Made by a program: the position numbers and the translations under genes. DNA of 43,841 nucleotides from Candidatus Peregrinibacteria bacterium (GTDB lineage: Bacteria > Patescibacteriota > Gracilibacteria > UM-FILTER-43-11), in assembly GCA_030618315.1 (NCBI GenBank), contig JAUXDO010000001.1:1-43841 (forward strand), in the 5' to 3' direction. Below the pieces are notes generated by a model. It was not told the DNA's origin. It saw only the letters and a list, made by a program, of their open reading frames with translations, and did not search any database. Within the stretch, counting starts at the first letter, position 1, and every line of letters begins with the position of its first letter. Shown one piece after another: positions 28,484 through 28,715 of this stretch.

Positions 28484-28715
28484 GTGGGGCTGTTTGAGTA
28501 CAAACGTAGGGCTACCTTCGGCGTGGGGCTGTTTGAGTACAAACGTAGGGCTGTCCTGATTACAGGACGTGGTCCTATTTTATTATGATTGGTTGTATTG
28601 CTAATAACAATAAGATAGTACCACGCGAGGTAATCCGAGTAGCCCTACACGATCCGCCGCGGCGGACTCGTAGCCCCACGGCGTTACTACGCTAGCCCCA
28701 CGCTCGTACTCGAGC
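28484..28715. repeat. GC-rich REP/BIME-like cluster of inverted modules
   Basis: Identical 30-mers gtggggctgtttgagtacaaacgtagggct at 28484-28513 and 28523-28552. Reverse-orientation heads agccctac (28641-48) and agccccac (28672-79, 28694-28701). Small hairpins all have an AGTA loop on their own strand (gtttg-agta-caaac twice; gcgt-agta-acgc and gctcg-agta-cgagc on the minus strand). Central palindromes are gtcctg-atta-caggac and ccgccgcggcgg. Confidence 0.8.

Follow-up and report, generated by a model that had tools for sequence, protein, structure and literature searches.

The 272-nt spacer between rplA (ribosomal protein L1) and dut (dUTPase) of a Candidatus Peregrinibacteria bacterium is wholly occupied by one palindromic element, here called a ladder after its predicted fold. 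It lies at 28449-28720 on the minus strand of the window, by which we mean the whole 43,841-nt stretch that was analyzed (assembly GCA_030618315.1, contig JAUXDO010000001.1, positions 1 to 43,841). With moderate confidence, we take the element to be a gene-less member, resembling a MITE (miniature inverted-repeat transposable element), of a lineage-specific family of palindromic cassettes, namely the ladder-armed branch of the cassettes that carry a gene for a PF05635 four-helix-bundle protein. In a second copy in the same genome, the arms are homologous to those of the window element and enclose such a gene. The element is probably selfish DNA.

Anatomy of the element in the rplA-dut spacer

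A first-pass annotation of this DNA had put the gap at 254 nt; it measures 272 nt because dut starts at the conserved ATG at 28448, which is kept in relatives. The ladder extends from 3 nt past the rplA stop to the base preceding the dut ATG. As that annotation had said, the region is richer in GC than its surroundings (0.52 at 28500-28699 versus 0.29-0.44 in the flanks). The spacer contains seven exact GT[AG]GGGCT words, hereafter heads, four forward and three reverse. The window as a whole contains eight against 0.86 expected, a number reached by 0 of 100 shuffles, and seven of the eight fall within 218 nt.

The two identical 30-mers that had been reported, GTGGGGCTGTTTGAGTACAAACGTAGGGCT, were confirmed at 28484-28513 and 28523-28552, as was their plan, GTGGGGCT-GTTTG-AGTA-CAAAC-GTAGGGCT. 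They represent a 39-nt internal duplication, and a copy on another contig of this genome (C62) has the same duplication and arrangement. The reverse heads were likewise confirmed (listed below), together with the minus-strand hairpins GCTCG-AGTA-CGAGC (28702-28715) and GCGT-AGTA-ACGC (within 28680-28693), and every head begins with GT(A/G)G, as claimed. A third, degenerate forward unit is present at 28455-28476 (AATTGAGTACAATT followed by GTAGGTCT), and additional modules comprise GTCCTG-ATTA-CAGGAC, ACCTTCGGC, and a compound CCGCCGCGGCGG hairpin. The inverted arms measure 80-110 nt.

Read on the minus strand, the rplA stop is followed by the terminal hairpin, three heads each with a small hairpin, and the central hairpin; past this come four reverse heads (AGCCCYAC) and one degenerate head with small hairpins between them, then AGAAAT and the ATG of dut. 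The features are as follows.

28721..29422, minus strand: rplA (L1), an open reading frame (ORF) with orthologues upstream of dut in relatives (tblastn)
28721-28723, minus strand: rplA stop TAA, 3 nt from the ladder element
28449..28720, minus strand: whole ladder element in the "standard" orientation, co-directional with rplA and dut; 77-90% identical copies elsewhere (BLAST)
28702..28720, minus strand: stop-side terminus, att + CT + terminal hairpin GCTCG-AGTA-CGAGC (from comparing the junctions of copies)
28641..28701, minus strand: stop-side arm, with heads GTGGGGCT (28694-28701), GTGGGGCT (28672-28679), and GTAGGGCT (28641-28648)
28680-28693, minus strand: hairpin AGCGT-AGTA-ACGCC in the stop-side arm
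28649-28671, minus strand: compound hairpin ACGAGTCCGCCGCGGCGGATCGT in the stop-side arm
28625..28640, minus strand: module ACTCGGATTACCTCGC, an imperfect local hairpin, complementary to a module of the other arm in the copy on contig C58
28569..28624, minus strand: central AT-rich hairpin GTGGTACTATCTTATT...AATAAAATAGGACCAC (GTGGTAC...GGACCAC), 56 nt, an imperfect inverted repeat
28484..28568, minus strand: start-side arm, with minus-strand heads AGCCCTAC or AGCCCCAC at 28545-52, 28523-30, 28506-13, and 28484-91
28553-68, minus strand: module GTCCTG-TAAT-CAGGAC in the start-side arm
28531-44 and 28492-505, minus strand: two modules GTTTG-TACT-CAAAC in the start-side arm
28514-22, minus strand: module GCCGAAGGT in the start-side arm
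28449..28483, minus strand: start-side terminus, comprising ACGAAGT, a degenerate head AGACCTAC (28469-76), a hairpin, AGAAAT, and the dut ATG
28455-68, minus strand: weak AT-rich hairpin AATTG-TACT-CAATT in the start-side terminus
28011..28448, minus strand: dut (dUTPase), ORF with ATG at 28446-28448, a start kept in relatives

In other copies of the element, CTGCTTCGC replaces the terminal hairpin GCTCG-AGTA-CGAGC at the stop-side terminus. A weak promoter-like match was seen on the minus strand within the central hairpin; matches there reach only 9 of 12 positions and are not enriched (8 versus 4.6 +/- 2.3 in shuffles), and a promoter was rejected as a candidate. No intrinsic terminator, that is, a minus-strand hairpin followed by a U-tract, was found in 28449-28720. 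An Rfam 15 scan of 28000-29500 at E <= 10 returned two chance-level matches outside the element (E >= 1.3).

Ladders form a multicopy mosaic family

The assembly is fragmented (1.14 Mb in 126 contigs, with 36% GC and 72.5% completeness). By exact match, head clusters were found at 8 loci, always with forward heads followed by reverse heads. Exact and degenerate heads, BLAST, and a census of AGTA hairpins together gave about 23 ladder loci in the genome, on contigs C3, C7 (two), C13/C32, C21, C23, C33, C37, C38, C43 (two), C47, C58, C60 (two), C62, C65, C80, C107, C114, C115, C124, and C126. The earlier description of a mosaic, multicopy, intergenic palindromic repeat thus held up, and the motif is not confined to one locus. 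Copies are 77-90% identical to the window element over 92-210 nt (BLAST). They follow one plan, in which 3-5 direct units, a central hairpin, and 3-5 inverted units succeed one another, and the number and order of modules vary among copies, making the family a true mosaic. Besides the GTRGGGCT heads (R is A or G), two other types occur: GTGGGCCT in one subfamily and GTGGAT(G/T)N in another, large one.

Contigs end inside the ladder copies on C13/C32, C62, and C60. The starts of C13 and C32 (C13:1-119 and C32:1-119) are exact reverse complements that overlap by 119 nt within one ladder; these two contigs can be joined, because the assembly broke at the center of that ladder. Ladder repeats break assemblies of such genomes.

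Three ladders of the GTGGAT type (C37:21665-21770, C107:5960-6040, and C124:12130-12178) have a common AT-rich cargo of about 100 nt in place of the central hairpin. This cargo includes a promoter-like TTGTAA-17-TATAAA and might be a small RNA or an outward-reading promoter.

Outside this genome, an exact look-up of the dut protein found no near-identical strain, and an exact search for the 30-mer in metagenome contigs found no match. A generic three-head pattern returned mostly unrelated GC-rich coding repeats and other arrays from metagenome and genome contigs and was not used as evidence. Two of the metagenome contigs, Ga0105054_10050835 (L109:2730-3300) and Ga0209284_10086929 (L117:250-760), are unrelated and have about 40% GC; in them, 21-nt units with GTAGGGCT as their head octamer (GTAGGGCTCTTTTGACAATAT) form inverted arrays on either side of a central hairpin, and no small hairpins separate the units.

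Ladder arms also enclose genes for PF05635 proteins

The copy on C58 has arms homologous to those of the window element (BLAST E = 3.9e-15). At its center, in the position of the central hairpin as judged by alignment to the C58 inner boundaries, is a gene for a protein of about 130 amino acids that matches PF05635 (23S_rRNA_IVP, E = 1.9e-18) and TIGR02436. The window copy has no PF05635 gene and only the 56-nt central hairpin. The inner boundaries of the C58 cargo, GTGGTTTTTTTTATTGAC... and ...AAGATAATCCAC, resemble the halves of the gene-less central hairpin, which suggests that the gene-less form is a deletion derivative of the gene-bearing form. Homology to C58 is limited to the arms and these two inner boundaries, as a global alignment overfits inside the ORF. 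The four-helix-bundle ORF of this copy (C58:3087-3536) reads on into the arm (..NEVSPTRGNPSSPTRVIS) for about 25 codons and stops there.

A second PF05635 gene lies between ladder arms of the GTGGAT type on C43. In a relative from another genus (G010, contig C8), a PF05635 gene is accompanied by arms of GTGG words, a GGCC-ATTA-GGCC hairpin, and an identical inner boundary, GTGGTTTTTTTTATTGAC. That ladders and PF05635 cassettes share arms within one genome, and again in a second genus, is new here.

All 11 PF05635 genes of this genome (on C61, C24, C56, C77, C33, C59, C58, C43, C9, C119, and C83; loci L003-L013) are bracketed by a direct array of 7-13-nt words on one side and by the reverse complement of that array on the other; 7 of 7 readable ones in G010 and the same-genus relative G001 are likewise flanked by inverted arrays of short words. 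The array words differ in every cassette. The proteins of C58 and C59 are 73% identical and have a common leader, and the arms of the C59 cassette consist of plain GTGGCTCA 12-mers; the four-helix-bundle protein does not obviously dictate the arms. Compared with such cassettes, the ladder looks like a word array with small hairpins placed between the words.

A leader motif, approximately GAAT..TTAGTATTTAA..GAAT, was observed about 10-25 nt before the ATG of four-helix-bundle genes (C9:4828, C24:2832, C33:9749, C77:13891, C43, and the C58/C59 leaders) and of genes for REP-associated tyrosine transposases (RAYTs; REP, repetitive extragenic palindrome), namely C126:2294 and upstream of the gene on C20. 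It is rare upstream of other genes.

Ladders abut stop and start codons

Six of 6 copies of the GTRGGGCT/GTGGGCCT subfamily that lie between co-directional genes share one polarity, that of the genes; their distance is 0-5 nt to the stop and 0-4 nt to the start. Their stop-side end reads TAA/TAG, 1-3 nt, and CTGC(TTCGC or hairpin); their start-side end reads hairpin, AGAAnn, and ATG. AGAA occupies positions -6 to -3 at 6 of 8 ladder-adjacent starts compared with 1.2% of 574 long ORFs; the bases just ahead of the ATG are hence part of the element. Among the same 574 ORFs, a motif resembling the Shine-Dalgarno (SD) sequence occurs within -18 to -4 at only 6% of starts, and DNA upstream of starts is A/T-rich genome-wide; by this measure, the sequence implies mostly SD-independent initiation in the genome.

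The GTGGAT subfamily is placed differently, with 5 of 9 copies between convergent genes; its two copies in co-directional gaps share a polarity opposite to that of the GTRGGGCT/GTGGGCCT subfamily. Only 1 of about 19 classifiable ladder copies is in a divergent gap.

The fold is equally stable on both DNA strands

RNA folding of the minus strand gave -113.2 kcal/mol (z = -9.0), and that of the plus strand gave -122.7 kcal/mol (z = -8.3). On either strand the predicted fold is a ladder: heads of the left and right arms pair to form the rungs, and the small hairpins protrude.

The stems were assessed on every distinct 14-nt segment between two heads, unselected for pairing (n = 8). A 5-4-5 hairpin fits all 8 segments, and 38 of 40 stem cells (95%) are paired versus 52.6% in shuffles, none of 500 of which reaches this level. 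Changes on both sides were seen at 4 of 5 stem pairs, and no one-sided change was seen. These data bear out the proposal of compensatory stems under constant loops (AGTA/ATTA). None of the 38 paired cells is a G-U pair, and mismatches are spread over both strands. AGTA/TACT is the commonest tetraloop among perfect 5-4-5 hairpins genome-wide (46, compared with a mean of 6.6 per loop), followed by TATC (31) and ATTA (29), and nearly all AGTA hairpins sit in ladders with GTRG following. The stop-side arm has AGTA or ATTA loops and the start-side arm TACT or TAAT loops, such that the two arms, each followed on its own strand from its outer end inward, agree in heads and loops. This mirror symmetry, the lack of wobble pairs, and the equal stability of the strands point to a ladder that is recognized or generated as DNA rather than as a specific RNA.

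Several finer interactions were considered and rejected. Left AGUA/AUUA loops are complementary to right UACU/UAAU loops, as kissing loops would be, but the loops that face each other across the rungs are inconsistent (C115). Covariation at the R/Y position between paired heads is not kept (C115, C23, and C7); the rungs are a consequence of the inverted layout, not pairs selected one by one. A G-quadruplex was dismissed because an arm has just three G-runs and the GTGGAT subfamily lacks them altogether. The hairpin CCCGC-TTA-GCGGG at the tRNA-Gly locus of the window (an Ssn-nuclease hairpin) differs from the ladder hairpins.

RAYT paralogues pair with other palindromes

The suggestion that the heads belong to REPs served by a RAYT stood in part: RAYT homologues exist in the genome, and none is flanked by ladder repeats. 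The gene at C20:967-1587 encodes a 206-amino-acid protein whose score on the NCBIfam model REP_Tyr_transpos (NF047646) is 97.5 bits, the cut-off being 80. Its sole relative in the PDB is E. coli TnpA-REP (4ER8), to which the HUH (HNHFHLL) and Tyr (EYIAWNPVKH) motifs could be aligned. About five RAYT copies are present (C20, C36/C25, C12, C101, and C126). No ladder units were found beside RAYT genes, and the flanks on C20, C101, and C126 are AT-rich. RAYT genes are multicopy in 28 of 40 relatives, and this ladder family was found in none of the 40.

Between the HUH and Tyr motifs of each RAYT paralogue lies one GC-rich perfect palindrome that keeps the reading frame, and these palindromes belong to different dispersed families (the RAYT and palindrome loci are labeled L001, L002, and L016-L019). 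The in-frame sites are as follows.

C20:1261-1292, palindrome CTGAAAGCGGGATT..., a family of 4 copies
C36:3-40 with C25:1-24, palindrome CCCGAAGGCGCGCAA..., a family of about 20 copies
C12:52-85, the same CCCGAAGGCGCGCAA... family
C101:28812-28841, palindrome CGTAGGGACGCGATTAATCGCGTCCCTACG, a family of about 18 copies that includes window 9676-9704
C126 (~1990-2035), in-frame palindrome

A classical GTAG-tagged palindrome, (C)GTAGGGACGCG...CGCGTCCCTAC(G), is present in about 18 copies and shares the hexamer GTAGGG with the ladder head GTAGGGCT. These simple palindromes are better candidates for RAYT substrates than the ladders, and they match the published definition of a REP more closely (PMC3733652). 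By carrying the palindrome internally, these genes may represent the form that a RAYT-with-cognate-REP unit takes in this lineage, the REP lying inside and not flanking. The pairing of the genome's RAYT paralogues with other palindromes is also new here. Within the window, an intergenic copy of the GTAG-tagged perfect palindrome, GTAGGGACGTTGCATTGCAACGTCCCTAC, was seen at 9676-9704, and two further dispersed palindrome families were seen at 12460-12497 and 31439-31460; CCTCTGAATGTGCGAATAATTATTCGCACATTCAGAGG has 5 genome copies and ACCTGCCTGCCGGCAGGCAGGT has 4.

Across relatives, RAYT and PF05635 gene counts rise in parallel, and repeat-poor genomes have empty rplA-dut spacers. Co-occurrence of RAYT genes with filled junctions is real; because both counts rise together, it cannot separate RAYT from PF05635 as the factor, and it was set aside as nondiscriminating.

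The same junctions are short or differently filled in relatives

The first-pass annotation had expected rplJ-rplL after rplA. There is no anomaly here, as rplA-dut is the usual order in the lineage and rplJ is located on contig C67 of the same genome. Wherever the locus of a family relative extends upstream of dut, the two genes are adjacent (14 of 14), and they are so in G025 (same order) and G027 (same class) as well. Compared with 272 nt here, the spacer is 6-27 nt long in eight relatives, including the same-genus G001, where it is 14 nt (TAA-gtacgctacgattc-ATG). In six other genera it measures 79-153 nt and contains unrelated inverted arrays of short words. Three further ladder-bearing junctions show the same pattern in relatives, and at one of these G010 has a ladder-type element with GTGGATTC heads.

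Neither the window element (by BLAST) nor the double-unit AGTA/ATTA signature was found in 40 related genomes. We conclude that the family expanded in this lineage. To judge from the relatives, such junctions are recurrent homes for palindromic arrays; arrays may arrive there by insertion, or older ones may be replaced by gene conversion.

Interpretation and alternative explanations

Each arm is an array of 8-nt GTRGGGCT words and 12-16-nt hairpins, and the two arms are inverted around the central hairpin. In the scheme that we prefer, copies would spread or overwrite one another as DNA through these hairpins and GTRG words with the help of a factor acting in trans. A RAYT paralogue might provide that factor, as might some route connected with the four-helix-bundle cassettes. 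The element would be transcribed within the rplKA-dut message. Its insertion may be tolerated since it would fold on itself, keep the upstream stop codon, and provide dut with an AT-rich, unstructured leader, AGAAAT, from which initiation could proceed independently of SD; if mRNA processing or stability is affected at all, this would be secondary. An rnc gene is present in the genome (C101:24087-24470) and processing by RNase III is possible, the 8-bp rungs being poor substrates and only the central hairpin looking suitable.

Several observations weigh against this scheme. Unrelated palindromic arrays occupy the same junctions in other genera, and long occupancy with sequence turnover or gene conversion could explain that pattern without transposition. 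No transposase, target-site duplication, or filled/empty polymorphism within the species was found, and we know of no enzymatic activity for the four-helix-bundle protein. The link to the cassettes draws on two ORF-bearing copies in this genome and one in G010, the apparent homology of the central hairpin to the C58 inner boundaries is short, and the C58 and C59 proteins have unrelated arms despite their 73% identity.

It is possible, though we think it unlikely, that the ladder is a true REP element or bacterial interspersed mosaic element (BIME), a GTRG tag with a hairpin that is cut and joined as folded single-stranded DNA by a RAYT of this genome, the ladder then being a nest or concatenate of such units. 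RAYT homologues are indeed present, with HUH and Tyr motifs that align to 4ER8. Every head subfamily begins with GT(A/G/T)G, GTRG follows almost every AGTA or ATTA hairpin, and the GTAGGG hexamer is shared between the head GTAGGGCT and the GTAG-tagged palindrome of about 18 copies. The conservation of structure and loop under varying stems is what recognition of a hairpin by an HUH enzyme would lead one to expect (PMC8266576). Ladders are found in co-directional or convergent gaps, in agreement with published REPs (PMC3733652), and the RAYT-poor relatives G004-G007 have empty rplA-dut spacers. The last point does not discriminate, since PF05635 counts rise along with RAYT counts. Nor is any RAYT gene flanked by ladder units; RAYT genes are multicopy here and in 28 of 40 relatives, in which this ladder family was not found, and each paralogue has its own simple palindrome, with no ladder modules. 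The GTRG tag lies 4 nt 5' of the hairpin or on its 3' side instead of abutting the 5' end of the palindrome, and the hairpins span 12-16 nt versus 20-40 bp in REPs.

Two further explanations were considered. That the element is a selected cis-acting RNA of the rplKA-dut transcript, serving as an RNase III-type processing site, a stabilizer of the rplKA 3' end, or a device for dut translation, with spread as a secondary matter, seems improbable to us. It would account for the very stable fold of the transcribed strand, the fixed polarity in 6 of 6 copies, and the tight abutment to stop and start; the rnc gene fits it, as do the general lack of SD motifs, with which leader structure matters, the other palindromes at the same junctions in several genera, and the finding that RNase III acts on the stems of intervening sequences (IVSs) built as the same type of cassette (PMC4990558). 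The nontranscribed strand, however, folds equally well (z = -8.3), G-U pairs are missing from the stems, and the AGTA loops on the left mirrored by TACT loops on the right have no reason in a single RNA. Eight relatives, including the congener, have no insert at the junction; there is no Rfam match and no U-tract terminator, and 8-bp rungs make a poor RNase III substrate. We give very little weight to an iteron-like array on double-stranded DNA, in which a sequence-specific protein, such as a nucleoid protein or the one with the four-helix bundle, would bind the 8-nt words and its binding symmetry would explain their inverted layout. The words are better conserved than the stems, recur with a period of about 22 bp, which is near two helical turns, and adjoin a small gene family of unknown function. 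Binding to double-stranded DNA gives no cause for stem complementarity, which is yet strongly kept; the words differ completely between cassettes whose proteins are 73% identical, and the elements lie inside transcription units, not at promoters.

More broadly, and as a tentative and rather doubtful extension of the cassette reading, ladders and PF05635 cassettes may form one transposase-less palindromic class that colonizes stop-to-start junctions of operons in SD-poor genomes, with rRNA IVSs as its best-known habitat. If this is true, the arms alone, with their GTRG words and hairpins, suffice for multiplication, and a self-closing element brings the upstream stop and the downstream start together such that downstream translation survives. 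The IVS and its S23p/four-helix-bundle gene have been unexplained since about 1990, and REP-like repeats have hardly been described in bacteria of the candidate phyla radiation (CPR). A gene-less REP-like repeat and a gene-bearing IVS-type cassette that share arms in one genome link these two puzzling kinds of repeat. Ladder units and simple GTAG palindromes thereby become concrete substrates, with the RAYT paralogues and the four-helix-bundle protein as the candidate factors. In an organism that is mostly without SD sequences, a very stable predicted structure about a quarter of a kilobase long fits between the stop and start of essential genes, which bears on how translation starts inside operons of these bacteria.

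Comparison with known systems

A full-text literature search found no description of such ladders in Peregrinibacteria. Among known repeats, Correia elements of Neisseria are a MITE-type comparison, and pneumococcal BOX elements are modular mosaic repeats. In REPs, a palindrome of 20-40 bp bears an unpaired GTAG-type tetranucleotide immediately at one of its ends (PMC3733652), BIMEs are regularly spaced REPs in alternating orientation (PMC2817692), and RAYTs cleave and join the repeat as folded single-stranded DNA (PMC8266576). Like REPs, BIMEs, and REPINs (REP doublets forming hairpins) with their RAYTs (PMC2817692, PMC3733652, PMC8266576, and PMC3479197), ladders are built from short, GC-rich, multicopy hairpin units with a GT(A/G)G tag, cluster in both orientations to give larger folds, lie between co-directional or convergent genes, and share a genome with RAYT genes. 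They differ in their 8-nt word plus 12-16-nt hairpin, repeated with a period of about 22 nt, and may differ in the placement of GTRG, which begins every head and stands either 4 nt 5' of the hairpin or immediately past its 3' end. The alternating arrangement of BIMEs does not apply, since direct arrays are followed by inverted arrays. Moreover, the RAYT genes are multicopy and none is flanked by ladders, so that there is no REPtron, and sister copies of the ladder contain a four-helix-bundle gene.

The IVS of Coxiella lies in 23S rRNA and has inverted ends (a 28-bp stem), tandem heptamers, and an S23p gene; it is excised by RNase III, and its way of moving is unknown (PMC4990558). The cassettes described here resemble such ORF-bearing 23S IVSs (Coxiella burnetii S23p and Leptospira; PMC4990558) in that a PF05635/S23p gene is enclosed by a long stem, which forms from inverted arms made of short tandem repeats, and IVSs likewise have gene-less forms and are regarded as selfish. 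The window copy differs in lying between protein genes rather than in rRNA (helix 25 or 45 of 23S), no 23S rRNA gene being assembled in this genome. It has no ORF, and local hairpins interrupt its arms to give a ladder of 8-bp rungs in place of a 28-bp duplex.

Compared with the MITEs of Coxiella (PMC5896051), the ladder is similarly small, gene-less, and multicopy, with inverted ends, is located in intergenic DNA that is probably transcribed here, and is related to a longer ORF-bearing form. In contrast to MITEs, it has no target-site duplication: within each copy, the 1-3 nt that follow the stop do not match the 2 nt that precede the ATG; its longer relative codes for a PF05635 four-helix-bundle protein and no transposase, and the number and order of modules vary among copies. 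In this last respect, the ladders resemble BOX elements and the heptamer repeats of Xanthomonas and Nostoc (PMC4692102), which likewise draw on a small set of modules in variable number, lie between aligned ORFs near stop and start, and are transcribed, as the ladder probably is. What sets the ladders apart from these is their grammar, a GTRG word combined with a hairpin that has an AGTA or ATTA loop.

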